Shown here: positions 6,570 to 28,578 of the stretch, in pieces
Layout: the number at the start of each line of letters is the position of its first letter
How positions within the stretch are numbered: position 1 is the stretch's first letter
NCBI GenBank assembly: GCA_964291405.2
Contig: OZ219926.1
Location: 512,001-576,000, forward strand
From: Thermodesulfobacteriota bacterium
GTDB lineage: Bacteria; Desulfobacterota; Binatia; Bin18
Length of the DNA: 64,000 bases
Direction: 5' to 3'
Translations under genes and position numbers: made by a program
Notes under the pieces: model-generated
What the model saw: the letters and a program-made list of their open reading frames with translations, nothing else
What the model was told of the DNA's origin: nothing
The model's database searches: none

Positions 6570-7223
6570 ATGGTCTTACGAATCTTCTCTCTTCTTTTGA
6601 GTTTCTTCCTCGCTTGCCTCGCATTCCCACCAAAGGGCCAGTCCACGACTGATCTGATGGATCAGTATCTCTCTTTATCAGGTGCGTTTTCTTTTGTACG
6701 CCGGGCTCCAGAGGGGACAGAGTCAAAAAAGATCGTGCTGAGCGTCTTTGAGGATTTTCTGTGTCCACATTGCTATGACGTCTTCTCCAACCTCATCCCG
6801 GCACTCAAGCAAAAATATCCAAAGCAGCTCGATGTCCGCTTTCACGCGGTCCCGATTGTCCATGCGTCCTCTCAAATTCCAGCCCGGGCTTATGCCATCT
6901 CTCACGAGTTGGGGCTGAGTGAAGAGATGCAGCGCGCGCTGTTTCACGCACGCTTTGAGGAAGATATTGATACGGGTAGCCGAGCCGGCATCGCCCATGT
7001 CGCCCACCGCATCGGCCTCGATCCCGAATTGCTCCTGAGCCAGCTCGATGCAGACGGGGGGAAGGCTGAGCTTGAAGCAACCATTGCCCTGGGGAACAGC
7101 TATCATATTGAGGGGGTTCCGACCCTGATCATCGACGGTTGGATACGGGTGCAGGATCTCTCTCCTCAGAACATCGAAACGATTATTGACGAGCTACTTG
7201 AGCGTAAACGGGGGAAACCGTGA
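6570..7223 (+). CDS. DsbA-like thiol:disulfide oxidoreductase, exported
   Basis: FEDFLCPHC active site and cis-Pro GVPT motif; hydrophobic N-terminus; start moved downstream of the ORF-track start (6555 also possible). Confidence 0.85.
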   Translation: MVLRIFSLLLSFFLACLAFPPKGQSTTDLMDQYLSLSGAFSFVRRAPEGTESKKIVLSVFEDFLCPHCYDVFSNLIPALKQKYPKQLDVRFHAVPIVHASSQIPARAYAISHELGLSEEMQRALFHARFEEDIDTGSRAGIAHVAHRIGLDPELLLSQLDADGGKAELEATIALGNSYHIEGVPTLIIDGWIRVQDLSPQNIETIIDELLERKRGKP

Positions 7224-7318
7224 GTCCAAAGGAGAGCTGACTTTTCCCATCTGGCGAGACAGTCGTATGTTCGTCAGCACCCGCTAGGACCACAGTGCAA
7301 CGCAGACAGGGGGGTGGC

Positions 7319-9748
7319 ATGAGCACTGAAGAGCGTGGCTATTTATATACACTGGGGGAGCAGATTATTGCGCGGCGCAGGCTTGTTTTGCTGCTCGTTA
7401 CCGTCGCCACCCTGATTTTTGCCTCGTTTGCCGTCCAGCTCGACCTCGTCACGCGTTTCGACGAACAACTGCCGGAGAACCACCCTTTCATTCAGGTCCA
7501 TAAAACCTACGCGCCGACCTTTGGTGGGGCCAACGCCATCATGCTGATGTTGGAGGTTGAAGAAGGCACCATCTTCAATCAGGCCACGTTGACCAAGATT
7601 TTCAATATGACCCAGGCGTTGGAACGGGTGTATGGCGTAAATAACGAATTGGTCAACTCCATCGCCCACCGAACCAACCGCCGCGTGATCATGAAAAGTG
7701 GCGGGATGCAGGAAGTCGAGCCGGTCATGGAACGGGCACCCGAGACCGAGGAAGAAGTTGAACGCGTACGCCGGATCGTACATTCCTCACGGAATTTATA
7801 CGGCGTGCTGGTTTCGCTGGACGAAAAGGCCGCCCTGCTCAATGCCACTTTTATCGAGCAGCGGCTCGATTATCGGCGGCTGTTTGAGGAAGTCCGGCGC
7901 TCTATCGTTGAGCCATATGAGGATGACAACACACGGATTTATCTGGCCGGTCAACCGGCCCTGTACGGCTGGGTGTATTTCTACGCCAAGCAAGTCTACG
8001 TCATTTTTCTGGCAACGACGGTACTGCTGTGGTTGCTGCTGTACTGGTATTTTCACGATGTCCGAGGGGCGCTACGGCCCACCTTGACCGGTGTTATATC
8101 GGCCATTTGGGGGCTGGGATTTATCAAGATGATCGGCTTCAGCCTCGACCCCCTCACCCTCGTCATTCCCTTCTTTATTACCGCCCGGGCGGTCAGCCAC
8201 TCCGTCCAGATGCATGAACGCTATTATGAGGAGTATCGCAAGGCGAATGGGCAAAAAGAGCCGGCCATTATTGCCTCGTTCGCCGAGCTTTTCGTGCCCA
8301 CCCTGTCGGGTATCCTGACCGATGCCCTGGGCCTGTTGGTGATCCTGTTCGTGCCCATTGTGCTCTTGCAGAAGCTCGCCATTAGTGCGGCGGTGTGGAT
8401 TCTCGCCATTACCGTGAGCGAGCTCTTGCTGAACCCGATCGTCTACCACTACCTGCGTGAACCCGACATCCGAGTCGTTGAACGGCGCGAGAACGGGCTC
8501 TTCAGGCGCATTGTCTCGACTGCGGCGAATTTTCTCGTCTCCCCCGCAGGCAAAGGGCTGACGCTCGCCAGTTGGGCACTTGTTTTGGTCATAAGCGTCT
8601 ACTTCTGGCAAAATCTGGTGATTGGCGATCCAACCGCGGCCACCCCACTCCTGTACCGCGACTCTCCGCACAATACCGCCCATGCCCGCATCCAAGACAC
8701 CTTTGGTGGGGTTGAGCAGCTCATGGTTGTGGTTGAGCGTAAAGAACCGGAGAAAGAAGAGGCCGAAGACGCGAGCGAAAGCCTGAGTGCGCTCGACCGA
8801 TTTCGTCAGCAAAGCGAGGAGCCTTCATTGGCAACTCCTGAGGTCTTGCCCTGGATCGAACAATTTCAGCGTGCGCTCGAACGCGACCCGGCGGTAGGGT
8901 TGAGCTTCTCATTTGTGGATATTTTGTCGGTCGTAAATGGAGCCATTCATGAACAAGAACCCAAATGGGAGGTCCTTCCCCGACGCAGGAGTGAAGTCCG
9001 GCTCCTGCTCGCCTCCTACTTCTTCGGCACCTCATTTCAGGAAAGCGCACAGGTCATTGATCACCAGTATCGCTCTGCACCCGTCCGATTCTTTCTGACC
9101 GACCATCAGGGGGAAACCATTCGACGGGTTATTCAGCGGGCTCGCGCCTATATCGATGCCCACCCCAGTGACATCGCCCAGTTCCGGCTCGCCGGCGGCC
9201 CTATTGGCGTGTTGGCCGCTGCCAACGAAGAGCTGTTTCGGAATGATATTCTGGTTAATATTCTTGGTTTTGGCACGATCTTCCTTGTCCTCGTTATTAC
9301 CTACCGCTCGATCATGGCCGGGGTGTATATGATTATCCCTCTGCTCGTCGCGAACGCCGTGATTAACGCATATATGGGGGCCCGCGATATTGGTATTAAT
9401 ATCCATACCCTCCCAGTGGTGACGGTCGGCGTCGGATTTGGCATCGACTATGCCCTGTATGTTGTGAGTCGTATTATCGAAGAGCATCGGCTGGGTAGCG
9501 GGCTGGATGACGCGGTGAGGACGGCACTCGCAACGTCCGGGAAAGCGGTGACCTTTACCGCGCTGACCATGATCCTCGGTACGCTGTTCTGGACCATGTC
9601 CAGCCTCCGCTTTAGTGCAGAGATGGGGCTGCTACTCGCCCTCTGGATGGGGGTAAGTTTCTTGGCGACCATGACGCTTTTACCCGTTCTGGTTGCGCTC
9701 TTCAAACCGCGCTTTGTCACGGCACAGGCCGCCGGAGCCGCAGATTAA
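7319..9748 (+). CDS. MMPL/RND family transporter (copy 1)
   Basis: Two-repeat multi-TM architecture; FGGAN, ARAVSHSVQ, GVGFGIDYALY, SGKAVTFTALT motifs. Confidence 0.9.
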   Translation: MSTEERGYLYTLGEQIIARRRLVLLLVTVATLIFASFAVQLDLVTRFDEQLPENHPFIQVHKTYAPTFGGANAIMLMLEVEEGTIFNQATLTKIFNMTQALERVYGVNNELVNSIAHRTNRRVIMKSGGMQEVEPVMERAPETEEEVERVRRIVHSSRNLYGVLVSLDEKAALLNATFIEQRLDYRRLFEEVRRSIVEPYEDDNTRIYLAGQPALYGWVYFYAKQVYVIFLATTVLLWLLLYWYFHDVRGALRPTLTGVISAIWGLGFIKMIGFSLDPLTLVIPFFITARAVSHSVQMHERYYEEYRKANGQKEPAIIASFAELFVPTLSGILTDALGLLVILFVPIVLLQKLAISAAVWILAITVSELLLNPIVYHYLREPDIRVVERRENGLFRRIVSTAANFLVSPAGKGLTLASWALVLVISVYFWQNLVIGDPTAATPLLYRDSPHNTAHARIQDTFGGVEQLMVVVERKEPEKEEAEDASESLSALDRFRQQSEEPSLATPEVLPWIEQFQRALERDPAVGLSFSFVDILSVVNGAIHEQEPKWEVLPRRRSEVRLLLASYFFGTSFQESAQVIDHQYRSAPVRFFLTDHQGETIRRVIQRARAYIDAHPSDIAQFRLAGGPIGVLAAANEELFRNDILVNILGFGTIFLVLVITYRSIMAGVYMIIPLLVANAVINAYMGARDIGINIHTLPVVTVGVGFGIDYALYVVSRIIEEHRLGSGLDDAVRTALATSGKAVTFTALTMILGTLFWTMSSLRFSAEMGLLLALWMGVSFLATMTLLPVLVALFKPRFVTAQAAGAAD

Positions 9749-9984
9749 CCGCTTTGTCCGTGGAACACTTGAGGAGAAGAACCGAAGAAGAATATTCCCC
9801 CGATCCTGCCGCCCCTCCTCTGGGAGGGGGAAAAAGCCTCTTCTGAAACTATTGACAAATATGCCCTCTAATAAAGATAAAGCCATTATAGAAAGGATAC
9901 GATTATGAGCCGTGCCCCCCCGTGCTGACCAAACCACCGCTCGCATATATCTCGCAGGAATATTATAAAAAAGGAGAGGATTTT

Positions 9985-11310
9985 ATGAGAACCTATTGGT
10001 GGGCCAGAATTGCCTGCGCACTGACGCTCGTAGGCGCGATGAGTCTGTCAGCCCCGAGCTGGGTGGCTGCCGATGTCAACCCAGGGGACACCATTACCAA
10101 AGACAACATGGCCGAGGCAGGTGAACTCCTTATCCCAGGCATACAGTGGTTTGTCGAAAACGGCATGCCCATTAAGGTCATTGAGTATAAGAAAGTCAAT
10201 CTGCCTAAACTCTACGCCGAAGCGACCGAGAAATACTCAGGCCAAGTCCAAATCTCGGCCGACGGCCGGGAAATGTTAAACTACGTAGCCGGTCTCCCGT
10301 TCCCAAACATTGATCCCAACGACCCCCTGGCTGGGGCGAAGATCATGTGGAACCAGGAGCAGAAGCCTTCTTATGTGGACAACGTGGGGACCGAATGGAT
10401 CATGGAACTCGTCAATAACCGGGGCGAGATGGAACGTATGTACGGCTCCCAGTTCTGGCGTCGGATGATGTGGACCGGTCGTCTGTACACCGACCCCAAA
10501 CCGATTGTCCCGAACAACCCGCCAATGCGGTATACGGAGCAGTTTGGTCCGCTTTTTATTCCCAACGACCTGAAGGGCGCTGGCGTGCTCAATACGCGCT
10601 ATCTGCCGACGAACATTCCGGATGACTCCTATATGTATCTGCCTGAGCTGCGTCGTGTGCGTCGTATCAGCGTCGCAAACCGCTCGGATGCCTTCTGGGG
10701 CACGGACATGGATCTCGACTCCCTGTGGGGCATGAATTCCAAGCACGCGTACTGGAAGTGGCGCCTCTTGGCCGAAAAGCAAATTCTGGCCCCGGTCCAT
10801 ATGGGACAATACGGCACCAGAGATGTCTGGTGTGCACAGCCGGACGGCAGAAGCGGCGTGATCGCGGGTATGCCGTGCAATATCAACTGGGAAAAGCGCA
10901 ACGTCTACGTTGTTGAAGGACTCCCGGTTGCCTACAGCCAGTATGCCTATTCCAAGCGTATCATGTATGTCGACAAAGACTTCTGGGCTCAGAATTTCTC
11001 GGAAATGTACGACAACGGTGGTGAGCTGTGGAAGCTCTGGTTTAATATGTTTGAGTATGGCCCCCTGCCGTACGAAGGCTATCCGGTAAAACCGATCCGT
11101 GGTGCCAAATACAATTACACGGATGACTGGGCCTTCACTCCGCATGGGATGCAGATGGACCTCCAGCTTGCCCACTTCAGCAAGTGGGATGCGCCATCCG
11201 GCTATGAGAAGCGGGAAGACTGGATCAACGAGTGGTATTTCAACGAGGCAATTGAATTCAACACCTCCAAAGCGTTCTCGGTGAACTTCCTCATCCAGAG
11301 CGCCCGTTAG
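9985..11310 (+). CDS. DUF1329 family periplasmic protein (LolA-like fold), copy 1
   Basis: RBS AAGGAGAGG; signal peptide; GLPFPNIDPNDPLAGAKIMWN, YLPELRRVRR, YSKRIMYVDKD motifs. Confidence 0.87.
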   Translation: MRTYWWARIACALTLVGAMSLSAPSWVAADVNPGDTITKDNMAEAGELLIPGIQWFVENGMPIKVIEYKKVNLPKLYAEATEKYSGQVQISADGREMLNYVAGLPFPNIDPNDPLAGAKIMWNQEQKPSYVDNVGTEWIMELVNNRGEMERMYGSQFWRRMMWTGRLYTDPKPIVPNNPPMRYTEQFGPLFIPNDLKGAGVLNTRYLPTNIPDDSYMYLPELRRVRRISVANRSDAFWGTDMDLDSLWGMNSKHAYWKWRLLAEKQILAPVHMGQYGTRDVWCAQPDGRSGVIAGMPCNINWEKRNVYVVEGLPVAYSQYAYSKRIMYVDKDFWAQNFSEMYDNGGELWKLWFNMFEYGPLPYEGYPVKPIRGAKYNYTDDWAFTPHGMQMDLQLAHFSKWDAPSGYEKREDWINEWYFNEAIEFNTSKAFSVNFLIQSAR

Positions 11311-11321
11311 CCCTACGAGCC

Positions 11322-11357: not shown

Positions 11358-11438
11358 CATAACAGACTAACCGGCGGCTTTTTCTCTATTTTCTTTTTTG
11401 CTAGGGTGCCCGTACTTTCATTTTGCGGAGGGGGAATT

Positions 11439-11804
11439 ATGGCCAGTGATACAGAGCAGGCAGGCGGGGACAGTAATCTTTCAAGAGCGGTTTGGTATTA
11501 CATCAGCGTTGGGGTGCTGTGGCTTGGGTTAATACTTACTGGCCTCGCCTTTGAGCGCCTCGGACTGACCACATCGTATCTGACAGGCATACTCCCAGGC
11601 GAGGTAAACAGCCTCAGGACACAGGTCGCAGAGCTTGAGGGCACCAACAAGGAACTCACCCACGATAGGGACCGCGCGGCGAAAACACGCAACACGCTTG
11701 AGGTCGAGGTGAATAAGCTGAAACGGCTCCAGCGGGAACTCGAGGCCGAGATTGATGCATTGAAAGCCGCGCCTGCCGCAGTGGCCACGCCCTCAGCGTC
11801 ATAG
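11439..11804 (+). CDS. hypothetical single-TM coiled-coil protein
   Basis: RBS GGAGGGG; one hydrophobic helix followed by heptad-rich segment; lies directly upstream of the ABC ATPase. Confidence 0.7.
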   Translation: MASDTEQAGGDSNLSRAVWYYISVGVLWLGLILTGLAFERLGLTTSYLTGILPGEVNSLRTQVAELEGTNKELTHDRDRAAKTRNTLEVEVNKLKRLQRELEAEIDALKAAPAAVATPSAS

Positions 11805-11834
11805 TCCAGCCAGCAAGATTTTTGTAGGGTTTTT

Positions 11835-12794
11835 ATGATCGGCGTTCAGAACGTTACCAAATATTATGGGCAAGTTTGCGCCCTTGACCGAGTTTCCTTT
11901 GATATCAAGAGCGGGGAAATTGTCGGCCTGCTCGGACCAAACGGTTCGGGCAAAACGACGCTCATGCGTATCCTAACCGGATTTTTTTCGGCAACGGAAG
12001 GGACAGTCCACGTGGCCGGGCTTGACGTGTCGACGTCTTCGCTTGCGGTCCGCAACCGTCTGGGCTATCTGCCGGAAAACGTCGTCCTCTACCCGGACAT
12101 GTCGGTCCGAGCATTTCTGAATTTCTGCGCTCGGATCAAGATTAATAGCGTGTCACAGCGGCGCACCAATGTTGAACGCGTCCTCAGCGAGTGCGCGCTT
12201 GAAGACATGGCTCATCGTCAAATGGGAACGCTGTCGAAGGGCTACCGCCAGCGGGTAGGGTTAGCCCAGGCTCTCCTGAGTGAGCCTGAGGTTCTCATCC
12301 TGGACGAGCCGACGGTTGGCCTTGATCCGAACCAAGTGATCGATATCCGTGAGCTCATCAAGGGACTGGGCGGGAAGGCAACCATCCTGCTGTCAAGTCA
12401 TATTCTGCACGAGGTGGAATTGACCTGCGAACGGGTGGTCATTATCGATAAGGGTCGCATCATTGCCGAAGATACCACGGAACGCCTGAGCGAGCGGATT
12501 CAGGGCATGGCAAGCGTGCTGGTCCGAGTGGGCGGACCGCGTCAAAGCGTTCTGCATGCACTACGGGCGATCAAGGCGGTCGCCCAAGTCACCGAGCAAA
12601 ACAAGAAAGACGGTGACGGACCAGAGGATGCTGTTTTTACGGTTCAGTCCTCCAATCAAGATATCGCCCGAGAGGTTGCCCAGACAGTAATCAATAACGG
12701 CTGGGCTCTGCATGAGCTCAGACCGGTCACCCTCGACCTTGAAGCCCTTTTTGTCCGTTTGACCAGAAGAGCAGAGCAAAAGGAGGCGGCGTGA
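11835..12794 (+). CDS. ABC transporter ATP-binding protein (GldA-like)
   Basis: Walker A GPNGSGKTT; signature LSKGYRQRVGLAQA; LILDEPT; SSHIL. Confidence 0.93.
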   Translation: MIGVQNVTKYYGQVCALDRVSFDIKSGEIVGLLGPNGSGKTTLMRILTGFFSATEGTVHVAGLDVSTSSLAVRNRLGYLPENVVLYPDMSVRAFLNFCARIKINSVSQRRTNVERVLSECALEDMAHRQMGTLSKGYRQRVGLAQALLSEPEVLILDEPTVGLDPNQVIDIRELIKGLGGKATILLSSHILHEVELTCERVVIIDKGRIIAEDTTERLSERIQGMASVLVRVGGPRQSVLHALRAIKAVAQVTEQNKKDGDGPEDAVFTVQSSNQDIAREVAQTVINNGWALHELRPVTLDLEALFVRLTRRAEQKEAA

Positions 12795-12888: not shown

Positions 12889-13638
12889 ATGTTTGCGAAT
12901 TTTTGGGCCGTCCTGAATAAGGAATTACGCTCGTATTTTCTGTCGCCGTTTATTTATCTGATCTCGGCGGTCTTCCTGTTGCTGAGTGGCTATTATTTTT
13001 ACTCCGACCTGGTTTTCTATGTCCAGTTTGGCTTTGGTCTGAATATCATGGAAAACTTTTGGCAGCTCATGTTCACCGACCTGCGTCTGGTCATCATGCT
13101 CACCGTCCCCTTCCTGACCATGCGTCTCTTCGCCGAAGAAAAACGGCTCGGCACGATCGAACTCTTGCTGACCTATCCGATGCGTGACGCCGACCTCTTT
13201 TGGGGCAAATTTGTCGCGTGTGCTATTGCCACGCTGTTTATGCTGTCATTCACTCTGATCTATCCAGTGTTGATGTTTGCCCTGCAACCGTTCAATTGGA
13301 CGCTGATAGTGCCTGGCTATGTTGGGCTGGTGATGCTCTCCCTGGCGTTTATCGCCTGTGGCCTGTTTATTTCGTCTCTCACGGATAACATCGTCGTTGC
13401 AGGTTTGGGTTCGCTCGGGACGCTGCTCTTTTTTTGGATTCTGAGCTGGAATGACGGGGCAACGCAATTCGGGCTCATCAGCACGATTGCCTCCGTCTCC
13501 ATGGTCACCCACTTCCAGAGCTTTGCTCTTGGGTTCATCGATGCAAAAGAAATCACCTTCTTTTTGCTCTTTATTATCTTTTTCAGCTTTCTGACCCTTC
13601 GCTCCCTGGAAGCGCGACAGTGGAGGGGACGCCGATGA
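12889..13638 (+). CDS. ABC-2 type permease (GldF-like)
   Basis: KELRSYFLSP and TMRLFAEEKRLGTIELLLTYP motifs; about 6 TM helices. Confidence 0.9.
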   Translation: MFANFWAVLNKELRSYFLSPFIYLISAVFLLLSGYYFYSDLVFYVQFGFGLNIMENFWQLMFTDLRLVIMLTVPFLTMRLFAEEKRLGTIELLLTYPMRDADLFWGKFVACAIATLFMLSFTLIYPVLMFALQPFNWTLIVPGYVGLVMLSLAFIACGLFISSLTDNIVVAGLGSLGTLLFFWILSWNDGATQFGLISTIASVSMVTHFQSFALGFIDAKEITFFLLFIIFFSFLTLRSLEARQWRGRR

Positions 13639-14999
13639 ATGCCAACGTTCGCAACACGATTAAACTCATTATTGGAACTCTGGGATTCTTTGCTCTGATT
13701 GTTGCTGTCCAATCTATCCTATCTGAATACAATCAGCGGCTTGACCTGACTCCACAGAAAAAGTTTACGCTCTCGCCGCGGGCGCAACAGGTCGTATCCG
13801 ACCTGAAACGCGATGTCCAGGTCATGGCCTTTGTTCACAGTGACCGTCCGGAAAATTTCTTTATCAAGGACATGCTCAGCCGCATGGCCAACCTCTCGCC
13901 GCACTTCAACTACAGTATTGTTGACATCAATCGGAATCCTGCCCTGGCCCGGGAATACCAGGCTACCCAATACGGAACCATGGTGTTTGAGTCGAGCGGG
14001 ATACGCAAAGGGACGCTGCTGGGTAGGGGCGAATCCGCAGCCGTTGCCACCCTGCTTCAGGTTTCGCGTGCACCAGGCGACAAAGTTATTTACTTTCTGA
14101 CCGGGCACGGGGAGGCGGCTCTGGCCGACGCCTCCCCGCAGCGGGGCTATAGCAAGCTCCGGGGGGCCCTGGTTGATGAGTTTTATGATGAGAAAAGCCT
14201 CTCACTCGGAGAGAGCGGAGCGGTCCCGGAGGATGCGACTGCGGTTGTCATCTTCGGCCCAACATCTGAGTTTCTCCCGTTTGAGTTGGAAGCACTGGAC
14301 GTCTATGTGCGGCGTGGTGGCGCCCTGTTCGTATTGCTCGATCCGGACAGCTCGCCCTCATTTGTTACCTTTCTTGAGAGATACGGCATTAGCCTGCCCC
14401 CCCTTATTGCAGTCGATCCCACTAAGCGTCTGTTTGCCGGCGAGATGTTGACCTTCCGGGCTTCCGCCACCAAGAAGCCGCACCCGATGATCCGCTCGGT
14501 TAATGCGCCGCCTATTTTTTCACTCGCCCGCGTGGTGTACATGGAGCCAGATGAGGAAAAGGGCCTGATGGCCACAGCTATTCTGGCTACCTCGCCCCAG
14601 GGCTGGGCCAGTGCCCAGGAAAACATCCCACGCACCGGGATTACAAAATTTGAGGAGGGGCGGGACTTTCGTGGCCCAATTCCTATTGCCGGTGAGATGG
14701 CTATTCGGACTGAGGATGCGCTCGGACGTATTGTGGTGTTTGGCGATGCGGATTTTGTCAATAATAATTTAGTCGAACAGGGCGGCAATAAAGACCTCTT
14801 CATCAATGCCATCAATTGGCTCGCCGATGACCAAACTCAGATGGCGGCCAGGCCGGAGACACAACAGTCGGGCGTCAATCAACTCTTTCTCTCCTCGGAT
14901 CAAATTCAGACCGTTCTTGTCACAAGCACCGTCATCGTGCCAGGCTCTTTCTTGTTAATCGGGGTGGGTGTCTTTACGTGGCGGAGGTATCACGGATGA
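13635..14999 (+). CDS. GldG-like ABC transporter auxiliary protein
   Basis: RLDLT..KFTLS, IYFLTGHGE, VFGDADFVNN, NKDLFINAINWL; N- and C-terminal TM helices; ATGA overlap with the permease. Confidence 0.88.
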   Translation: MNANVRNTIKLIIGTLGFFALIVAVQSILSEYNQRLDLTPQKKFTLSPRAQQVVSDLKRDVQVMAFVHSDRPENFFIKDMLSRMANLSPHFNYSIVDINRNPALAREYQATQYGTMVFESSGIRKGTLLGRGESAAVATLLQVSRAPGDKVIYFLTGHGEAALADASPQRGYSKLRGALVDEFYDEKSLSLGESGAVPEDATAVVIFGPTSEFLPFELEALDVYVRRGGALFVLLDPDSSPSFVTFLERYGISLPPLIAVDPTKRLFAGEMLTFRASATKKPHPMIRSVNAPPIFSLARVVYMEPDEEKGLMATAILATSPQGWASAQENIPRTGITKFEEGRDFRGPIPIAGEMAIRTEDALGRIVVFGDADFVNNNLVEQGGNKDLFINAINWLADDQTQMAARPETQQSGVNQLFLSSDQIQTVLVTSTVIVPGSFLLIGVGVFTWRRYHG

Positions 15000-17672: not shown

Positions 17673-17701
17673 ACGTCACAGCCCCCTGCCCTGTTGTGAT
17701 G

Positions 17702-17739
17702 AAAAAATCCCCCGTACAACCCTGTACGGGGGATTTTTA
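17702..17739. terminator. bidirectional intrinsic terminator-like hairpin
   Basis: AAAAAATCCCCCGTACA-ACCC-TGTACGGGGGATTTTTA. Confidence 0.8.
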
Positions 17740-17912
17740 TTTTGATAAGAGGGTTCTTCGTTTTGAGGAGGAAAGTGGCGACAAGGTCGAGGCAACCATA
17801 CTCCATCGTCCCTTGACTTTTGTCGTAAAAAAATGCAAAGGACGGAAGGCACGAAATCTTGTTGGGGAGTCCTCGTGCAAGTCGTCCACACCAAAAGGGA
17901 GGTCACCACATT

Positions 17913-19116: not shown

Positions 19117-21507
19117 GTGGCTGAGAGAAAGATACCGACTATTGAAGAGCTCGAAGCGCATTCCAGGGATCGTGCCGCCCTCTATCGTTTGGGAGAGGGC
19201 CTGATCCGCAACCGCTTTCTGATCACGATCGGGGTGTTGCTTATCACCGGCTTTATGGCCTGGCAGGCGTTATCGATCCAAATGTCGACCAGCTTTAACG
19301 ATCTGCTGCCCTACCGCCATCCGTTTGTCCGCGTGCATTTCCGCTTTGCCGATCAATTCGGCGGGGCGAACAATGTGAACGTGATGCTGAAAGTGGATAA
19401 GGGTGACGTCTTCACAGTCGGTCTGCTCAGAAAAGTCTACGATATGACGCAGGCCATGGACCGCGTCACCGGGGTGAACCACGACCAGATCGAGTCGATC
19501 GGCCACCGCACGACGCGTTATCTCACCGTGTCAGGAGGAACGATCGCCACTCCCCCGGTCATGCGGCGTCCACCCAAGACGGACCGGGAAGTCGCCGAAA
19601 TCCAGGAGATTTGCTACAACACCGAAACCATTTACGGCCAGTTGGTCTCCCTGAACGGTCAGGCCCTCCTGCTGAAAGCCAACTTCATTGAGGGTAGACT
19701 TGACTACAGGACCGTCTTTGAAGAGATTCGCCGGACCGTCAAAGAACCGTTTGAGACTGCCGAGGAGACGATCTGGGTGGCCGGCGAGCCCCAGCTCTAC
19801 GGCTGGATCTACTACTACGCGAACGAGGTGTTCTACATCTTCCTCGCCGCGGCGGCAGTGTGCTGGATTTTGCTCTACCTGTACTTCCACGATTGGCGGG
19901 GGGCATTGCGCCCGACCATCACCGGCGTTGTATCGGCCTTTTGGGGTCTGGGTATCCAGGCCATGATGGGCTTCTCCATGGACCCGCTGGCTTTGGTGAT
20001 TCCATTCTTTGTCACGGCCCGGGCCATAAGCCATTCGGTGCAGATGCACGAACGCTATTATGAGGAATACCACAAGTGGCAGTGGAATAAGGAAAAGGCG
20101 ATTGTCGCCGCGTTTGCCGAATTATTCGTGCCAACCCTGAGCGGTATTATTACCGACTCGTTGGGCATGCTCGTCATCGTGGTTGTGCCGGTGGTCATCC
20201 TGCAGAAGATCGCCATCTCGGCCTCGATCTGGGTCGCCTCGGTGGCGATCAGCGAACTGCTCATGAACCCGGTGGTGTACTACTACCTCAACGCGCCTGA
20301 CCCGGAAAAGGTCCTGAAACGCGAGAACGGCTGGTTCCAGCGTTTTGCCGACGTATGCGCAGCCTGGATCACGACGCCCAAAAACGCCAGGATGATTGTT
20401 ATCTTCTGGGTTGTTTCCTTTCTCATTGCCCTGACCCAGATTCGGCACCTTACCATCGGCGACCCGACCGCGGCCACGCCGCTGTTGCATCTGGAGTCGC
20501 CGTATAATCAGGCTCATATCGAGATTCAGAAGTATTTCGGTGGAATTGAGCCCCTCATAATTGTGGTTGAGGGACGAGACAAAGAAGTGCTCAAGAACCC
20601 CGATTTATTGCGGCAACTTGAAAAATTCCAGCGTCACATGGAACGCGACAGGGACATTGGCTACAGCTTCTCGCTGGCTGACATCATTCAGGCCATTAAT
20701 ATGACTTTCTATGATATGCAGCCACGCTGGGGCTCCATCCCGGCCAGTTCCCGGCGGGTGAGTTCGCTCTTCTTCTACTATTTTGCCGGAACACCACCCG
20801 GCGAGTCATCGAAATTTCTCGACCCGAGCTATACGGTTTCACGGGTGACGTTCTACTGCGCCAATCACCAGGGAGATAATATCGCCCGGATTATCCAGGA
20901 AGCGCGGAAATTCGTTGCCGACAATCCCCTGCCCAATGCAGACTGGCGTCTGGCCGGTGGTTTGATCGGGGTGACGGCCGCGGCGAATGAAGAGATCCTC
21001 AAAAACAACCTGTATATGCACGGCCTGGGTTTTGGGACGATCTTCCTGATCGTGATGTTTACCTACCGTTCCCCGGTCGCCGCAGTTGTGATGATGATCG
21101 GCCTGTTTCTGGCCGACGGTGTGGTGAATGCGTATATGGGTTTCCGTAATATCGGCATCAACTTGCAGTCGCTGCCGGTGGTGACCGTCGGGGTGGGATT
21201 CGGCATTGACTACGCCTTATATATCGTCAGTCGAGCGGTGGAAGAGTATGACGGCGATATCAACGACGCCGTCCGCCTGGGACTTGCGACAGCGGGGAAA
21301 GCCGTGGCCTTTACTGCGGCAACCCTGATCACCGCGACGGTCCTGTGGGCATTCTCGAACATTCGCTTCTGTTCGGAAATGGGCCTGCTGCTGGCGTTGT
21401 GGATGGGTATCAGCTTCCTCGGCGCCTGTACCTTTGTCCCGTCGGCATTGGTGCTCTGGCATCCGAAGTTCTTTGTTCGGGCGGCCAGGGAAGGTATTAT
21501 TGCCTAA
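19117..21507 (+). CDS. MMPL/RND family transporter (copy 2)
   Basis: RBS AAGGAG with GTG start; paralog of 7319-9748 (ARAISHSVQMHERYYEEY, GVGFGIDYALY). Confidence 0.9.
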   Translation: MAERKIPTIEELEAHSRDRAALYRLGEGLIRNRFLITIGVLLITGFMAWQALSIQMSTSFNDLLPYRHPFVRVHFRFADQFGGANNVNVMLKVDKGDVFTVGLLRKVYDMTQAMDRVTGVNHDQIESIGHRTTRYLTVSGGTIATPPVMRRPPKTDREVAEIQEICYNTETIYGQLVSLNGQALLLKANFIEGRLDYRTVFEEIRRTVKEPFETAEETIWVAGEPQLYGWIYYYANEVFYIFLAAAAVCWILLYLYFHDWRGALRPTITGVVSAFWGLGIQAMMGFSMDPLALVIPFFVTARAISHSVQMHERYYEEYHKWQWNKEKAIVAAFAELFVPTLSGIITDSLGMLVIVVVPVVILQKIAISASIWVASVAISELLMNPVVYYYLNAPDPEKVLKRENGWFQRFADVCAAWITTPKNARMIVIFWVVSFLIALTQIRHLTIGDPTAATPLLHLESPYNQAHIEIQKYFGGIEPLIIVVEGRDKEVLKNPDLLRQLEKFQRHMERDRDIGYSFSLADIIQAINMTFYDMQPRWGSIPASSRRVSSLFFYYFAGTPPGESSKFLDPSYTVSRVTFYCANHQGDNIARIIQEARKFVADNPLPNADWRLAGGLIGVTAAANEEILKNNLYMHGLGFGTIFLIVMFTYRSPVAAVVMMIGLFLADGVVNAYMGFRNIGINLQSLPVVTVGVGFGIDYALYIVSRAVEEYDGDINDAVRLGLATAGKAVAFTAATLITATVLWAFSNIRFCSEMGLLLALWMGISFLGACTFVPSALVLWHPKFFVRAAREGIIA

Positions 21508-21534
21508 AACCGCTATCCCTTCTTGACTGAAGGC

Positions 21535-21832: not shown

Positions 21833-22120
21833 TTATTCCTGATTTTCCAGATCTTCCCCGCCCTTTTGCATCGCCCCTTCAGGGTTTGTCAGCAAGGACT
21901 CACCCAGGGCTTTCGGGTTCGCAGCCAATCCGGGCTCTCGGCTATCCTTATTGGCTTGCTTATACTGGTCGACCAAAGACGGTTTGGGCTCAGCATCCTT
22001 GACCTCTTCGATGGGGGGGGCGCCAAGTTCACACCCGCCCAGCACGACAATCGATCCAATTCCACATGCAATGAGCCCGTTCCGCAGCCATTTGCCGCAA
22101 TGAGAAAAAATATCCTGCAT
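21833..22120 (-). CDS. small hypothetical lipoprotein
   Basis: Lipobox LGGC after a hydrophobic stretch; divergent from the DUF1302-like gene. Confidence 0.55.
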   Translation of the reverse strand: MQDIFSHCGKWLRNGLIACGIGSIVVLGGCELGAPPIEEVKDAEPKPSLVDQYKQANKDSREPGLAANPKALGESLLTNPEGAMQKGGEDLENQE

Positions 22121-22363
22121 GGAGCGGTCTATTAAAGAAAGCCGACGCATTTGTCAAGAGCAGAAACACAGGAAGGAAATGCCGTCTGGGCAGTTGCAAA
22201 ATATGAAGAATAGCGCTAGAAGCAGCCTGGAATACCAAATCATCTTTTGCATAATGCATTGCACTAAGGATCTATGGGGAAAGGGGGTGACCTGCTGCAA
22301 CCAGGGAAACAGCAAGTGAGTCAAGGTAGGGAGGATAATTCTTTGTTACAGGAGGGAAAGTTT

Positions 22364-24663
22364 ATGATCAAACACAACGGGAAAAAGCATTCGGGCCTGA
22401 GAGGACTGGTGGCCGGGCTAGCCATCGCAGCCGGGCTCGTTTGGCTCACAAGCCCCGCGCAAGCGGTGGTCCGGGTGGGCGACTCAGAGATTCAAGTCGT
22501 GTACGAGATGCAGCACGCATTTCAATTTGACGGCAGCCCTGGAGATAATTTCGAGTGGGTGCAGTGGCGTAACGAGTTGCGCGTGGAGTACGAGTATCAG
22601 GATCTCGTGTCAACCGAGGGCGGGTTGTTCGGTAAGAACATCAAGATCCCAGGGGTGCGGCGCGCTGACTTCTCCTTCATGTATCGGGGCCGCTTTGACC
22701 CGGTCTATGAAGTCCGCGACAAGTATGACGATATGTACTCCCACCGCATCAAGCAGTTCAAGTCCTTTACCTTTCCCGAGAACGGCTTTCGGGAAATGAA
22801 TCTGGACGTGGACTTTGGGGATGTGATGGGCCACCGGCTGTCGATGAAGCTGGGCAAGCAGCAGATCGTGTGGGGGGAATCCGATCTGTTCCGCTCCATT
22901 GACATTGCCAACCCGCTACGGCTGGACCAGAACCAGGCGGTGGGAGAAGCCTTTGAGGACTTCCGGAGTCCGATCTGGGCCATCAAGTTTCTGTACGACA
23001 TCGGGAACGTCGGATCGTTCTGTCCAACGTCGGTCTGGAGTTGTTCTACACCCCGCGCTGGCGGTCACTCGTGCAGCACCTGGTCCTGGAAGGCGGCTGG
23101 GGCGGCCTGCGCTATGACGACCCGAACTATATTGGCGACGTGGAAGATTACTTTGATTCGCCAACCTCTCCTGGCACCTTAACCACCAAGGGCGTGCCTT
23201 GGGGGCCATACCATGACTACGCCCGGAGTCGTCACCCCTGGTCCGTGTTCCGGGTCGGGCGCAACCTGGCGAATATGGCCCCGGACAGCGGGTGTAATGC
23301 CGATGTCCCATGTACGGACGACGCCGCCGGCCGCGGCACCAACTTCCTGTACCGGATTGGCGGCGGTCGCCATACCCACCACATCCGCGGTACAAAGTGG
23401 AAAAACAGCATGGTCGGCGCACGGATGATGGGGAAGATTTTTGACAACTTCGACTTCACCCTGAACTATATGTACAAGCGCGTCGATCCGTATGCCGTGT
23501 TTGACCTGCCGTCCTTCTTCGGCACAGACCACGACGACGGTCTCGGCAGGGTGGACCAGTACGGTCGGCGACTCGGCTCCTTCAGCAACACTCTGCTGGG
23601 TTCACCCGGCGGGTTCTTTGCGCATGACCCGACCAACCCGAACAATATGCTCAACTTCCGTCGCGCCCTGGACCGGTGTTTCGAGGAGAATCGAGCCTCG
23701 TTTTTCAGCGGGGTCGACATGTTAGGTTACAGCCAGGACGGCAACCCGAACAACGACCGACTTGCGACCGCCTGCTTCGAGGTTGCCCACTCGTATCCGT
23801 GGACGAACGTGTTTGGCTTCACGGTTACCTATAATGACTTTGATTACACCGGTGCGGTGTTCCGCCTGGAGCAGAGTTGGTCGACCAACGAAGGGCGCAA
23901 CTGGGGCGGCTCGAACTATGGTGGGCAGTCTCAGGCGCACTTTGATGCGAAGTTGCAGCACGCTCGGGAGGTCTATCTGGACAGACTGGATGACAACCCG
24001 GAGTACGCCGCAGCGGTCGATCAATATGCGGCCGACAACGGGGTTGACCGTCGTGGCGCGGTATTCGGCGCACCGGACGTTGACCCGCTCATCACCGGAC
24101 CGCACAGCGATGGAGAAGGCAATCCCTGCGTACCGGGTGTGAACGTGTGTCCGGGCAAGAAGATCAACGGCGCGCGGATCAAACAGGGATCGTCTGTGTG
24201 GCGGAGCATGATCGGGTTTGACCTGATTCAGTCCATTCAGTCCTTTCCGGGCATGGGCTGGACACGCGGCCTGCCGGGCGGTATTGGTGACCAGGCCACC
24301 TTCTACACCTTCCAGGCCCTGACCACCTATCAGAACGATAACCGGCCCTCGGGCGTCAACGCCTTCACCAATGCGCCGCGAGACCGGCACCATCGGTTTA
24401 ATCAGTTGTACACCTTTGGCCTGTCGGGCTTCTACTTCCGAGGCAAACTGGAACCGCTGTTTGCGGTCGCCTACTCGGTGAACTCCAAGCATCCGCTGAT
24501 TCTGGCCCAGAGCTACTGGCACGGCTTCCTCTTCCGCAACCTCGACATCTTTGCCGGCACGGTCATGTATATGGGCGGCCGCAACGACACCGATGGTACG
24601 GGGCTGCACCTGTGGGCCGACCGCGATCTGTTCTGGATTCGCCTCCAGTACTACCTGCTGTAG
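22364..24663 (+). CDS. DUF1302-like outer-membrane beta-barrel protein, copy 1 (1 bp deletion near 23020)
   Basis: RBS GGAGGG; signal peptide; LGKQQIVWGESDLFRSIDIANP motif; C-terminal FWIRLQYYLL; split into ORFs 22274-23182 and 23041-24663, and comparison with copy 2 shows one missing base. Confidence 0.8.
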
Positions 24664-24682
24664 TCACATCGATAACCACTAA

Positions 24683-24714
24683 CCGGGGCGGGTATGATAC
24701 CCGCCCCTTTTTTT
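24683..24714 (+). terminator. intrinsic terminator
   Basis: GGGGCGGGTAT-G-ATACCCGCCCC followed by a T-tract. Confidence 0.85.
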
Positions 24715-24783
24715 CCCACCTCACCCGTAACACCTCCACTTACGTTTCTTGACTTTTCCATGTGGACGGCATTGGATAGGTGT

Positions 24784-25365
24784 ATGAAGGGTCTTCTGCT
24801 CACCTGCTTACTTTGGGCCGGGGCGCTAGTTGTCCCGCCTGTTCCCGGCTGGGCTCAAGACCGCTCGTCGGATGCAGCCAGCCGGGAAATTATTGAGCGA
24901 CTGACACGGGTCGAAACTCGGCTGGACGGATTAGAAGATAGCATCAGACAACTGCGGGAGGACATGAACACCCAGAACCAACAACTCCGCACGGATATGC
25001 AGCAACTGCGCGAGGACATGCAGCTTCAGAACCAGCAACTGCGCGAGGACATGCAGCTTCAGAACCAGCAACTGCGCGAGGATATGCAGCAACTCCGCGA
25101 AGACCTGAATCATCAATTGGACCGGCACTTTCAGCTCATCCTCGGCGTCCTGGCGGCCTTTACTTTCATGTTCATCAGCATCCTCGGCTTCGCCATTTGG
25201 GACCGTCGTACCATGGTCAGGCCATTTGCCGACAAGGTGAAAAATCTGGAAGACGACCTCTCAACAAAAGGCCGTCGGTTAGGTGTCATTCTTGATGCAC
25301 TTCGGTCCCTGGGACAGCGCGACGAGCGAGTCGCCGCCATTCTCAAACGCCTGAATCTGCTGTAG
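24784..25365 (+). CDS. signal-peptide, coiled-coil, C-terminal TM hypothetical protein (copy 1)
   Basis: Signal ending PGWA-QD; QQLREDM repeats; TM helix followed by WDRRTM. Confidence 0.75.
   Translation: MKGLLLTCLLWAGALVVPPVPGWAQDRSSDAASREIIERLTRVETRLDGLEDSIRQLREDMNTQNQQLRTDMQQLREDMQLQNQQLREDMQLQNQQLREDMQQLREDLNHQLDRHFQLILGVLAAFTFMFISILGFAIWDRRTMVRPFADKVKNLEDDLSTKGRRLGVILDALRSLGQRDERVAAILKRLNLL
25000..25082 (+). repeat. 33 bp in-frame tandem repeat (2.5 copies) encoding QQLREDMQLQN
   Basis: CAGCAACTGCGCGAGGACATGCAGCTTCAGAAC twice plus a partial copy. Confidence 0.9.
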
Positions 25366-25466
25366 CGCGTTTCACGTCAAGCTGTCGCCATACTGCCCCG
25401 CTCTCGTCATGCCGGACCTGACCCGGCATCCAGCGATCTCCCGTTTTTCCGTTCGGGTACATGACG
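25363..25466. repeat. REP-like palindromic element, copy A
   Basis: TAGCGCGTTTCACG, then CGTCATGCCGGACCTGACCCGGCATCCAG starting 42 bp after it, closed by ATGACG; related copy at 27893. Confidence 0.65.
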
Positions 25467-25560
25467 CATCGTTGTCATATTCGCTTAACATTTTCGCTTG
25501 ACATTCAGGCCATTAAAGTATTATCCATGGGGGACCAATCTTTTCAAAGGAGGGAAGGCT

Positions 25561-27818
25561 ATGGTCGAACGCACTAGGGGGCGAAGGCGAAGGGCAGGCC
25601 TGAGGGGATTCGTGGCCGGGCTAGCCATCGCAGCGGGACTTGTATGGTTGACGAGCCCCGCACAAGCGACGATCCGAGTGGGGAATTCGGAGATTCAAGT
25701 CGTGTACGAGATGCAGCACGCATTTCAATATGACGGCAGCCCAGGGGATAACTTCGAGTGGGTGCAGTGGCGCAACGAGATGCGCGTGGAGTACGAGTAT
25801 GGTGATCTTGTGACGCCCGAGGGCGGGTTGTTCGACAAGAACATCAAGATCCCGGGGGTGCGGCGCGCCGACTTCTCCTTTATGTATCGCGGTCGCTTTG
25901 ACCCGGTCTATGAAGTCCGCGACAAGTATGACGACATGTATCCCCACCGTATCAAGCAGTTCAAGTCCTTTACTTTTCCCGAGAACGGGTTCCGGGAGAT
26001 GAACCTGGACGTGGACTTCGGGAATGTGATGGGCCATGGGCTGTCGATGAAGCTGGGCAAGCAGCAGATCGTGTGGGGCGAATCCGATCTGTTCCGTTCC
26101 ATTGACATTGCCAACCCGCTACGGCTGGACCAGAACCAGGCGGTGGGCGAATCCTTTGAGGACTTTCGGACCCCTATCTGGGCGATCAAGTTCCTGTACG
26201 ACATCGGGAACGTCGGGACGTTTATGTCCAACGTCGGTCTGGAGTTATTCTACACGCCCCGCTGGCGACCCATCACTCAGCACCTGGTGTTGGAAGGTGG
26301 CTGGGGCGGCCTGCGTTACGACGACCCGAGCTTCATTGGCGATCCGACTGATTACTTTGATTCGCCGACCTCACCAGGCATCTTGACCACCAAGGGCGTC
26401 CCTTGGGGGCCATACCATGACTACTCCCGGATTCGCCATCCCTGGTCGTTGTTCCGGGTCGGGCGCAACCAGGCGAGGATGGCAGGTGATTCCGGGTGTA
26501 GTGGTTCAGGACCGTGTACGGACGATACCGCCGGCCGGAATGCAAACTTCCTGTACCGGATTGGCGGCGGTTCGAAAACCCACCATATTCGGGGCACGAA
26601 GTGGGACAACAGCATGGTCGGCGTGCGGTTGATGGGGAAGATTTTCGATAATTTTGACTTTACTCTGAACTATATGTACAAGCGCGTCGATCCGGGCGGC
26701 GTGTTCCATTTCGACACCTTCTTTGCCGACTCACCGCTCGATGCGGATGGCAAACGGACGGTGGGCTTGGACGGCCGCCCGCAATCGGCCGGATACGCAG
26801 GAGGTGTCCCAACGGAGGGGAGATTTGCGGGTAGAGCTGTCGCCCCTGGGACGTTTGTTCATGACCCGACTGACCCGACAATATGCTCAACTTCCGCCGC
26901 GCCCTGGACCGGTGTTTCGAAGATAACATTGCGACCAACTTCGTCGGGGTTGACATGTACGGCTACAGCCAGGATAGCAACCCGAACAACGACCGATTGG
27001 AACCGCGTGTTTCGACGTGTCTCACTGGATGCCGTGGACAAACGTGTTTGGGTTCACGGTCACGTATAACGACTTCGACTACACCGGTGCGGTGTTCCGC
27101 CTGGAGCAGAGTTGGTCCACCAATGAGGCGCGCAACATAGCACCGGTCGCGAACGGCGGCAGGTCTCAGGCGCACTACGAGGCGCGCGTAGCCGCGGCGC
27201 AAGCCAGGGCCATAGCAGAGGGCAGGACGGGCTCGCAGATTCCGACCCATCCCTTTACGGACGGCGACGGCAACCCCTGCGCCGAGGGACACGGCAGCTT
27301 CTGTCCCAGCCCACGCCAGCGCGTTGCGCGCATTAAGACCGGCACGTCTCGTGTGGCGGAGCATGATCGGCTTTGACCTGATTCAGTCCATTCAGTCCTT
27401 TCCGGGCATGGGCTGGGCACGCGGCCTGCCGGGCGGTATTGGTGACCAGACCACCTTCTACACCTTCCAGGCGCTGACCACCTATCAGAACGATAACCGC
27501 GCAACAGGCCTGAACGCCTTCACCAATGCCCCGCGTGACCGGCACAGTCGGTTTAATCAGTTGTACACCTTTGGCATGTCGGGCTTTTACTTCCGGGGCA
27601 AACTGGAGCCGCTGTTTGCGTTCGCCTACTCGGTCAACGCCAAGCAGCCGTTGCTTCTGGCCCAGACCTACTGGCACGGCTTGTACTTCCGCAACCTCGA
27701 CCTCTTTGCCGGCACGGTCATGTATATGGGCAGCACCAACCAGGTCGATGCCACGGGGCTGCACCTGTGGGCGGAGCGCGACCTGTTCTGGATTCGTCTC
27801 CAGTACTACCTGCTGTAG
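25561..27818 (+). pseudogene. DUF1302-like outer-membrane protein, copy 2, with three 1 bp indels (pseudogene or assembly errors)
   Basis: Close paralog of 22364-24663; frame breaks near 26878 (-1), 27000 (-1) and 27349 (+1) by comparison with copy 1; RBS and C-terminal FWIRLQYYLL intact. Confidence 0.75.
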
Positions 27819-27838
27819 ACTCACCAGTAACCACTAAC

Positions 27839-27870
27839 CGGGGCGGGTATTATGCCCGCCCTTTTTCTTT
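27839..27870 (+). terminator. intrinsic terminator (duplicate of 24683)
   Basis: GGGCGGGTAT-T-ATGCCCGCCC followed by TTTTTCTTT. Confidence 0.8.
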
Positions 27871-27892
27871 CCCTCCCTCGCCTCACCTCAGT

Positions 27893-28006
27893 TAGCGCAT
27901 TTCACGATAAGTGGTAGCCCTATTATTTCGTCTTCGTCATGCCGGAATGATCCGGCATCCAGAGACCGGGGGGTGGGGATGGATTCCTGTTTGCACAGGA
28001 ATGACG
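27893..28006. repeat. REP-like palindromic element, copy B
   Basis: TAGCGCATTTCACG, then CGTCATGCCGGAATGATCCGGCATCCAG starting 42 bp after it, and GGATTCCTGTTTGCACAGGAATGACG. Confidence 0.7.
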
Positions 28007-28098
28007 GACGGCTACACAGAATCGCGATTTGCGCGAGGTGGTGAGACGTTCCTTCCTGAAACCAGGAAGCATTGACGTGGGCAGCATTGTATAGACAC

Positions 28099-28578
28099 AT
28101 GAGGGGTCTTCTGCTCACCTGTTTACTCTGGACCGGGGCGCTGGTCGCCCTGCCCGCTTCCGGCTGGGCGCAAGATAACGCCACGGACGCAGCCGGCCAT
28201 GAGACTATCGAGCGGCTGACACGGGTGGAAACTCGCCTGGATGAAGGACTGAAAAGACTGGAAGGCAGCATCACGCAACTCCGTGAGGACCTCAGTCTCC
28301 AAAACCGGCAACTCCGTGAGGACATGCAGCAACTCCGGGCCGACATGAACAAACAGAATGAACAACTCCATGACCGACTGGGCAATTTTATGCTGCTCTT
28401 TACCGGCGTGATCAGCATCATCGGGGTTATCCTGGCCAGCATCATCGGGTTTACCGGACGGGAACGGAAAGGGGCAAGGACGGAGCGGAGTGAATTGGCA
28501 GACATCCGCGCTGCCTTACACGCCTGGGCCCAACGCGATGAGAACGTTGCCGCCGTGCTCAAACAGTTCAACCTGTAG
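28099..28578 (+). CDS. signal-peptide, coiled-coil, C-terminal TM hypothetical protein (copy 2)
   Basis: Paralog of 24784-25365 (GLLLTCLLW, IERLTRVETRLD, QLREDMQQLR, QRDE.VAA.LK..NL) with fewer repeats. Confidence 0.75.
   Translation: MRGLLLTCLLWTGALVALPASGWAQDNATDAAGHETIERLTRVETRLDEGLKRLEGSITQLREDLSLQNRQLREDMQQLRADMNKQNEQLHDRLGNFMLLFTGVISIIGVILASIIGFTGRERKGARTERSELADIRAALHAWAQRDENVAAVLKQFNL

Follow-up and report, generated by a model that had tools for sequence, protein, structure and literature searches.

A putative composite envelope-transport locus in Binatia that links an AmeABCD-type cassette to a GldA/F/G-like ABC module

Introduction

Two gene sets, both widespread and poorly understood, lie together in the locus considered here, which occupies positions 6444-28578 on the plus strand of a 64-kb stretch of DNA (the window; C3:512001-576000 of a 4.95 Mb, three-contig Binatia genome, the source genome). 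The first is a cassette of four families, a DUF1302 protein, a DUF1329 protein, a BNR-repeat protein and a transporter of the resistance-nodulation-division (RND) type. Its closest described example, AmeABCD of Castellaniella defragrans, is built from the same four families and is required for monoterpene tolerance and dye efflux (PMC6394551). Genes of these families (the BNR protein as COG4447, the RND as COG1033) are cofit in Shewanella, Kangiella and Pseudomonas, and Price et al. have proposed for them the 'export of a cell wall component' (10.1101/072470). Pseudomonas putida mutants in the DUF1302, DUF1329, BNR and RND genes fail on Tween 20 and butyl stearate (10.1101/2020.07.04.188060). 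Structure predictions pair DUF1329 either with DUF1302 or with the BNR protein and the RND (PMC10866462); another study describes DUF1302 as a barrel of 18 strands, its ipTM with DUF1329 being 0.84 (PMC13499233). Mutant phenotypes are thus on record for the four-family set in Pseudomonas, Shewanella and Castellaniella, but the text consulted gives no mechanism. The second set is an ATP-binding cassette (ABC) module that encodes an ATPase, an ABC-2 permease, a GldG-like protein and a DUF4340 protein. DUF4340 is a predicted subunit of an ABC complex in SAR11 (PMC13712998), and in the text consulted on DUF4340 this module is a predicted complex only, with no substrate stated.

In the window the cassette genes are present in a doubled set, with the ABC module among them. 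No mention of an ABC module joined to an Ame-type cassette was found in the text consulted from the literature on DUF1302 with DUF1329, on DUF1329 alone, on DUF4340, or on GldG with ABC and RND genes; the preliminary description of this DNA had called the arrangement an unfamiliar one, and within those portions of the literature it has no description. The Binatota are predicted alkane degraders, and the available text of the genome paper from which that prediction comes, supplements aside, makes no mention of MMPL or RND proteins (PMC8262859). The locus bears on how greasy molecules move across a two-membrane envelope in sponge-dwelling, uncultured Binatia, which are predicted users of hydrocarbons and methyl compounds.

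Linkage of the ABC module to Ame-type genes

With GldG as query, 60 of 61 genomes, the source genome (G000) among them, gave a match at E <= 1e-20. Neighbourhoods were taken from 25 genomes in 10 families that carry the window's clade of GldG, along with the loci of other GldG paralogues, and their genes were labelled by phmmer and with hidden Markov models (HMMs) built from the locus. Relatives' genomes and loci carry G and L numbers below, Binatia families f numbers, and public sequencing runs X numbers. In a quick IQ-TREE run on 72 GldG rows the window's clade comprises 58 (SH-aLRT 99), of which 51 are linked, having a Ycf48, MMPL, DUF1329 or DUF1302 gene no more than 6 kb from GldG, and 7 are unlinked. 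None of the 14 rows in the two other GldG paralogue clades is linked, including the source genome's two other GldG modules. In 8 of the 10 families (f1, f2, f5, f6, f8, f10, f11 and f13) the module has a Ycf48-like gene, an RND gene or both no more than 4 kb away. An alignment-based search, which reached only Binatia-type records, supplied 42 further loci, several of them from the same genomes. In 38 of these at least one Ame-type gene stands beside the ABC module; one other is an uninformative 3-kb contig, and three (L079-L081) have no such gene within about 8-10 kb.

This adjacency survives while gene order changes between families. The order is Ycf48-RND-ABC-GldG-DUF4340-DUF1329 in f10, and in f2 the DsbA-like gene leads an RND gene, the ABC module, the lipoprotein gene and then Ycf48, RND and DUF1302. 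Part of f1 has a single cassette split by the module (DsbA, DUF1329, CC132, the ABC module, the lipoprotein gene, DUF1302, Ycf48, RND), and other f1 members have the order DsbA-RND1-DUF1329-CC132-ABC-GldG-DUF4340-Lipo-DUF1302-Ycf48-RND2. The Ycf48-like gene, the sole adjoining cassette gene in f5 and f11, encodes the most constant companion of the ABC module across families. The locus is flanked by housekeeping genes, aconitase upstream and a thiamine pyrophosphate (TPP) enzyme downstream, and it holds that fixed place throughout f1; the TPP enzyme is also downstream in f2 and near the module in f6. Within the source genome, which has 21 DUF1329 matches (20 of them above the family cut-off) and three GldG matches, this is the only locus at which the ABC genes and the cassette are joined. 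Judged from these neighbourhoods, the ABC module is not a chance neighbour of the cassette. The preliminary description had allowed that the module might turn out to be unlinked in relatives; what was found there is linkage to Ycf48-like, RND and DUF1329 genes.

Two further features of relatives and paralogues were seen in the course of this comparison. The second GldG paralogue of the source genome (G000:C3:452589-455000; L039 8588-10999) lies in an 804-aa open frame, no separate ABC-2 permease was detected beside its ATPase gene, and the frame may encode a permease fused to GldG. In f10 the module-adjacent RND (G053, L019 4412-7105) has a PDZ domain (PF13180, 2.1e-13) at residues 238-299, in the expected first periplasmic loop.

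Doubling of the cassette

The doubled cassette that gave the preliminary description its heading is real and complete in the window's genus, but it is not general. Six f1-type loci (L065-L069 and L078) do not have RND-1; the ABC module there is surrounded by a single RND gene, a single DUF1329 gene and either one or two DUF1302 genes. On this comparison of gene content, doubling is a feature of the lineage and not the core of the locus. RND-1 and RND-2 are 49.6% identical and DUF1329-1 and DUF1329-2 58% identical, values low enough to point to old paralogy rather than to recent tandem duplication. A FastTree analysis of 35 RNDs groups the module-adjacent RNDs of f6, f8, f10 and f13 with RND-1, and RND-2 falls in a second clade with f1, f2 and f3, the split having a support of 100.

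The DUF1302 paralogues have a different pattern of identity, in that the first approximately 205 residues are 92% identical and the next stretch of 214 residues about 66% (window 22400-23020 compared with 25600-26220), a contrast that suggests gene conversion between tandem copies. One RNA contig joins position 23010 to 26225, that is, DUF1302-1 to DUF1302-2.

Integrity of the reading frames

Three of the cassette genes are broken in the window. Loss of one base at about 18602 splits the Ycf48-like gene, and a second such deletion, at about 23020, splits DUF1302-1; DUF1302-2 is disrupted in at least two places, with frame changes near 26880, 27000 and 27350. In relatives the Ycf48-like gene is one intact open reading frame (ORF), an intact orthologue scoring 122.3 bits to PF14870, and DUF1302-2 is likewise one ORF of about 762-771 aa. 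The relative L077, with DNA 96% identical over the locus, has one extra base at each of the first two sites (at about 18602, six G residues where the window has five), and its intact DUF1302-1 orthologue matches PF06980 over positions 3-345 of 541.

Contigs from public runs give the same picture for the first two sites. An extra base at 18601 or 18604 is present in contigs of both RNA runs (X15 and X16), in the DNA run X3 and in part of X1, and an extra base at 23017 or 23019 in contigs of both RNA runs and in 30.3 of a depth of 43 in X1. This check spans the sites at 18602 and 23020, and the DUF1302-2 breaks lie beyond that stretch. In the population, therefore, both the Ycf48-like gene and DUF1302-1 have unbroken frames, and the breaks at 18602 and 23020 in the window are most likely errors of the assembly. 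Similar errors probably occur elsewhere in the source genome, the apparent pseudogenes of which are accordingly doubtful.

Gene content and predicted proteins

Scans of the window ORFs with Pfam and NCBIfam HMMs (Table 1) uphold the genes, domains, order and plus-strand orientation listed in the preliminary description. That list had passed over a small lipoprotein gene on the minus strand (h105, found at the same position in loci of the genus) and the two CC223 copies, and it did not take account of the split Ycf48, DUF1302-1 and DUF1302-2 genes.

Table 1. Features of the locus, with positions in the 64-kb window and the profile or other evidence for each (E-values; bit scores against the family cut-off).
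Feature	Position	Strand	Evidence
DsbA-like periplasmic thiol:disulfide oxidoreductase	6444-7223	+	PF01323 4.7e-18, 66.1 bits vs 25.6
MMPL-1 (RND-1), HAE3-type RND inner-membrane transporter	7295-9748	+	PF03176 3.3e-34, 118.8 bits vs 20.5; TIGR00921 9.8e-48
DUF1329-1, LolA-like periplasmic protein with signal peptide	9922-11310 (ORF)	+	PF07044 2.7e-48, 165.5 bits vs 23.1; PF17131 LolA_like 4.6e-15
CC132, 132-aa protein with one transmembrane helix (31-49) and a coiled coil	11406-11804	+	no Pfam family above cut-off
GldA-like ABC ATPase	11835-12794	+	PF00005 1.8e-35; TIGR03522 GldA 292.1 bits vs 402.6
GldF-like ABC-2 permease, about 6 hydrophobic segments	12889-13638	+	PF12679 5.7e-10; TIGR03518 GldF 108.5 vs 288.5
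GldG-like accessory protein	13620-14999	+	PF09822 5.6e-23, 82 bits vs 34.7; PF23357 3.9e-09; TIGR03521 53.8 vs 389.85
DUF4340 protein, single domain	14978-15574	+	PF14238 1.8e-13, 51.6 bits vs 25
Lipo210, lipoprotein with lipobox LPGC	15618-16184	+	no Pfam or NCBIfam family; kept in f1 and f2
DUF1329-2, second LolA-like periplasmic protein	16374-17672	+	PF07044 7.4e-48, 164.1 bits vs 23.1; PF17131
Ycf48-like BNR beta-propeller lipoprotein, lipobox LAGC	17859-19048	+	PF14870 4.7e-22 and 3.2e-16 on its two pieces
MMPL-2 (RND-2), second HAE3-type RND	19117-21507	+	PF03176 1.1e-30, 107.2 bits vs 20.5; TIGR00921 1.1e-47
h105, small lipoprotein with lipobox LGGC	21833-22150	-	no family match; same position in genus loci
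DUF1302-1 outer-membrane barrel, about 780-800 aa	22274-24663	+	PF06980 3.4e-13, 49.9 bits vs 23.2
CC223, coiled-coil membrane protein with QQLREDM repeats	24694-25365	+	sequence inspection
DUF1302-2 outer-membrane barrel	~25531-27818	+	PF06980 5.2e-15, 55.9 bits vs 23.2
Second CC223-like copy	28072-28578	+	tblastn 45% identity to CC223 over 203 residues; locus-built HMM score 178

The DsbA-like protein, the gene for which is kept at the head of the locus in f1 and f2, has CPHC at residues 107-110 and an N-terminal signal or anchor, and misses the NCBIfam DsbA equivalog cut-offs (37.7 against 290). Inspection of the N-terminus of DUF1329-1 indicates that translation probably starts at ATG 9985 rather than at GTG 9922. 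Both DUF1329 proteins score 56-59 bits to PF17131, and the DUF1329 profile matches the LolA-like structure 3bk5 (E 3e-14). TIGR00921 (HAE3) is the best NCBIfam family of both RNDs, yet its cut-off is not reached (162.7 against 351.9); among solved structures, RND-2 is nearest to MmpL3, MmpL5 and HpnN. The DUF1302 proteins, at about 760-800 aa, are some 160-190 aa longer than AmeA and match PF06980 over only the first 240-350 or so of its 541 positions.

The genes of the ABC block are tightly spaced: CC132 ends 30 nt before the ATPase gene, the permease and GldG genes overlap by 19 nt and the GldG and DUF4340 genes by 22 nt, and 43 nt separate the module from Lipo210. CC132 is restricted to f1, where 43 ORFs of relatives lie directly 5' of the ATPase gene. 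The GldG-like protein has transmembrane helices at 10-28 and 429-447 with a large periplasmic part between them. Its N-terminal DUF7088 part (residues 59-129; 13794-14006) matches structures of thioredoxin-fold proteins and of a protein disulfide oxidoreductase (1a8l, E 1.4e-11), a fold that is not redox-active here because the protein has no cysteine, and its middle part has a profile match to the GIFT domain of IFT52. The DUF4340 protein is short, one domain of about 190-215 aa; the ORFs in the GldG clade of L038 measure about 1.4-1.5 kb. Its model (pLDDT 84) has an N-terminal transmembrane helix, a small alpha/beta periplasmic domain and a C-terminal helix; Foldseek gave no match to it at E <= 0.001, and the top structural match, to the putative lipoprotein 4r7r, has a Z of 7.5, within the range of common arrangements. 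Lipo210 is modelled as a four-helix bundle (pLDDT 87), for which the PDB matches are generic bundles only and the Atlas matches are unnamed lipoprotein clusters. Compared in pairs, Lipo210 and DUF4340 show no sequence similarity to each other, and neither do CC132 and CC223. A complex prediction for GldG 35-425 with DUF1329-1 30-441 gave ipSAE values of 0.00 and 0.00, was run without controls and counts neither way.

CC223 consists of a signal or transmembrane segment, a coiled coil of QQLREDM type and a second transmembrane helix, and is a variable insert between the DUF1302 genes and the TPP gene: G015 and G025 have no copy, G006 and G017 one, the window two, and G013 five in tandem (L004 10608-13561). 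A 330-aa ORF on the minus strand (27888-28880) is matched in relatives only by ORFs antisense to CC223 copies. Elsewhere in the window, a DUF1800/DUF1501 pair lies on the minus strand at 326-3542, upstream of aconitase, and G017 likewise keeps DUF1800 on that side of aconitase. A lipid A and core biosynthesis cluster at 53027-61855 encodes an oxidoreductase, LpxB, an MsbA-like ABC exporter, DUF374, a Kdo transferase, LpxK, a methyltransferase and a heptosyltransferase, and with this cluster the organism has an outer membrane that bears lipopolysaccharide.

Habitat and representation in RNA libraries

Public runs that contain the locus stretch come from 13 studies and are for the most part sponge metagenomes. 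Over the locus the depth of the DNA runs is flat. The contigs of two metatranscriptome runs, both of one study, lie over DUF1329-1, DUF1329-2, Ycf48, RND-2 and both DUF1302 genes at a very uneven depth of 0-87, a measure that cannot rank genes and may include DNA carried over into RNA libraries. These contigs hint that several genes of the locus are transcribed. Among the contigs listed, none bridges the ABC genes to their neighbours. The uneven cover may reflect separate transcript levels, or may have no meaning at all. Strong G+C-rich hairpins followed by T runs lie after DUF1329-2 (17703-17738) and after DUF1302-1 (24685-24707), and could set the higher RNA levels hinted at for these two genes. 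A scan for sigma-70 promoters was at chance level, with 13 observed and 11.2 expected.

Discussion

The interpretation favoured here, at slightly better than even chances, is that the region is one composite Binatia envelope-transport locus, in which an AmeABCD-type system would be genetically coupled to a GldA/F/G-like ABC-2 module with DUF4340, the two sharing a hydrophobic cargo and drawing on both ATP and the proton motive force. A shared function is favoured because the association between one GldG clade and the Ycf48-like and RND genes is conserved and tolerates rearrangement. In the scheme proposed, the ATP-driven ABC-2 module would move a cargo molecule, hydrophobic or amphiphilic, through the inner membrane or out of it, and the proton-driven RND and the propeller would receive it from the outer leaflet or periplasmic face and load it onto DUF1329. 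DUF1329 would then dock onto the DUF1302 barrel, by which the molecule would reach or cross the outer membrane, and the DsbA-like enzyme would oxidise periplasmic components. The scheme starts from observed gene content, linkage, reading frames intact in the population and contigs from RNA libraries, and adds to them a presumed physical coupling, step order, direction and substrate. As to the substrate, the preliminary description had suggested a sterol or aromatic cargo among others, and nothing in the present analysis points there.

A number of observations weigh against such coupling, and several of them would fit another account, rather unlikely though it is, in which two independent transporters, an Ame-type RND and a GldAFG-like ABC transporter, stand side by side through inherited synteny with no joint function. 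Modules of the same GldG clade occur in f9 without cassette genes (G052 and the three metagenome-assembled genomes in L079-L081, with G060 an uninformative 3.8-kb contig), and partly so in f3, where the module of G046 has no cassette genes and that of G054 has an RND 5.4 kb away. The other GldG paralogues always stand alone, and DUF1329 adjoins the module only in f1 and f10. Ame-type cassettes for their part function without an ABC partner in Castellaniella and Pseudomonas, and a plain Ycf48-RND-DUF1302-DUF1329 cassette without ABC genes is present in the source genome itself (C3:4208275-4215921). Cover in the RNA libraries is very uneven between the two gene sets, since among the pieces listed the ABC genes have one of 380 nt, in GldG, at a contig depth of 0-2, thin cover that is not evidence of silence. 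The genomes compared are moreover related and non-independent, so that shared ancestry inflates the counts and makes them overstate the evidence, and all samples come from one class. What the account of mere synteny does not readily accommodate is that eight of the ten families keep the adjacency through rearrangements of both order and content, that some f1 loci have the ABC module inside a single cassette, between DUF1329 and DUF1302, and that linkage is confined to one GldG clade.

If the composite-locus interpretation is right, the direction of transport and the nature of the cargo still admit different answers. Outward transport, be it export, efflux or the supply of a lipid to the outer membrane, is somewhat more likely than uptake. 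This preference is weak, and is held because the solved relatives of the RNDs are exporters and because export is the role of ABC-2 permeases that have no classical binding protein. Genes of beta-oxidation type also count against the scheme as drawn, as they lie beside the module in other families (acyl-CoA dehydrogenase, enoyl-CoA hydratase, short-chain dehydrogenase/reductase and acyl-CoA synthetase), and with such neighbours uptake for catabolism fits as well as export. Acyl-CoA dehydrogenase directly adjoins DUF4340 in G048 and G056. Across f5, f8, f10, f11 and f13 the genes close to the module include those for enoyl-CoA hydratase, short-chain dehydrogenase/reductase, acyl-CoA synthetase, a ChsH2-type OB-fold protein and an MlaD protein. 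These flanks were scanned with Pfam for 63 of 89 unassigned stop-to-stop ORFs, the 26 terminal or overlapping ones being excluded, and many of the 63 have no family and are probably not genes. A single coupled system working inward, in which DUF1302 and DUF1329 capture hydrophobic growth substrates such as fatty esters, lipids and hydrocarbons for catabolism, would suit these catabolic-type neighbours, the P. putida mutants that fail on Tween 20 and butyl stearate (10.1101/2020.07.04.188060), the 21 DUF1329 matches of the source genome and the predicted alkane degradation by Binatota (PMC8262859). It is nonetheless unlikely, given characterised RND relatives that are exporters, a locus that contains no classical substrate-binding protein for an ABC importer, and flanks that, within the family of the window, consist of the aconitase and TPP-enzyme genes and not of a catabolic operon. 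That same core-genome position, fixed between the two enzymes across f1 and with the TPP enzyme recurring in f2 and f6, speaks for a device of envelope biogenesis that exports or matures an envelope component (an outer-membrane lipid, a pigment or a lipoprotein) rather than transporting substrates or solvents; so do the dedicated DsbA-like gene and three lipoprotein genes, the cell-wall-component export proposed by Price et al. (10.1101/072470) and the precedent of HpnN and MmpL3, which bring lipids to outer layers. Biosynthetic genes for a candidate lipid are, however, absent in and beside the locus, and the reported Ame-type phenotypes are tied to hydrophobic substrates, which leaves this reading improbable, and the least probable of those considered here.

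A more specific form of the composite-locus interpretation is that the ABC-2, GldG and DUF4340 proteins and the Ycf48-like and HAE3-RND proteins make up one inner-membrane supercomplex, a hybrid driven by ATP and the proton motive force that would load DUF1329 for the DUF1302 barrels. The Ycf48-like propeller would be the adaptor in such a complex, a role suggested by its being the most constant neighbour of the ABC module across families. This is a speculative and doubtful proposal; if true, the supercomplex would be a two-motor trans-envelope conveyor without a described counterpart. More generally, that a lineage keeps both gene sets together gives rise to a testable idea, namely that the two act one after the other on a common hydrophobic cargo.

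Comparison with known systems

With AmeABCD and the cofit clusters the locus shares an HAE3-type RND, a Ycf48-like propeller, a LolA-like DUF1329 protein and a DUF1302 barrel. It differs from AmeABCD in that the cassette genes of the window are non-contiguous, with an ABC block of five to six genes between them, in being headed by a DsbA-like gene, in the partial duplication of the set (two RNDs, two DUF1329 and two DUF1302 proteins), and in its DUF1302 proteins, which at about 760-800 aa match the family profile in part and compare with 605 aa for AmeA. The GldA/GldF/GldG gliding ABC transporter of Bacteroidota supplies the best NCBIfam families for the ABC block and has the same gene order, but all three window proteins fall far below the equivalog cut-offs, the host belongs to the Binatia, and a DUF4340 gene follows GldG. 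The relay from an ABC transporter to a carrier in LolCDE-LolA-LolB is an analogy of layout only, in which an ABC transporter is likewise encoded beside LolA-fold carriers; the window permease is of the ABC-2 type (PF12679) and not of the FtsX/MacB type. The uncharacterised ABC, GldG and DUF4340 modules that many bacteria carry, for example the complex predicted in SAR11 HIMB59 (PMC13712998), have the same four genes, and the source genome has two further copies of this general kind. From these the window's module is set apart by its short, single-domain DUF4340 protein and by its GldG clade, the only one linked to Ycf48, RND or DUF1329 genes.

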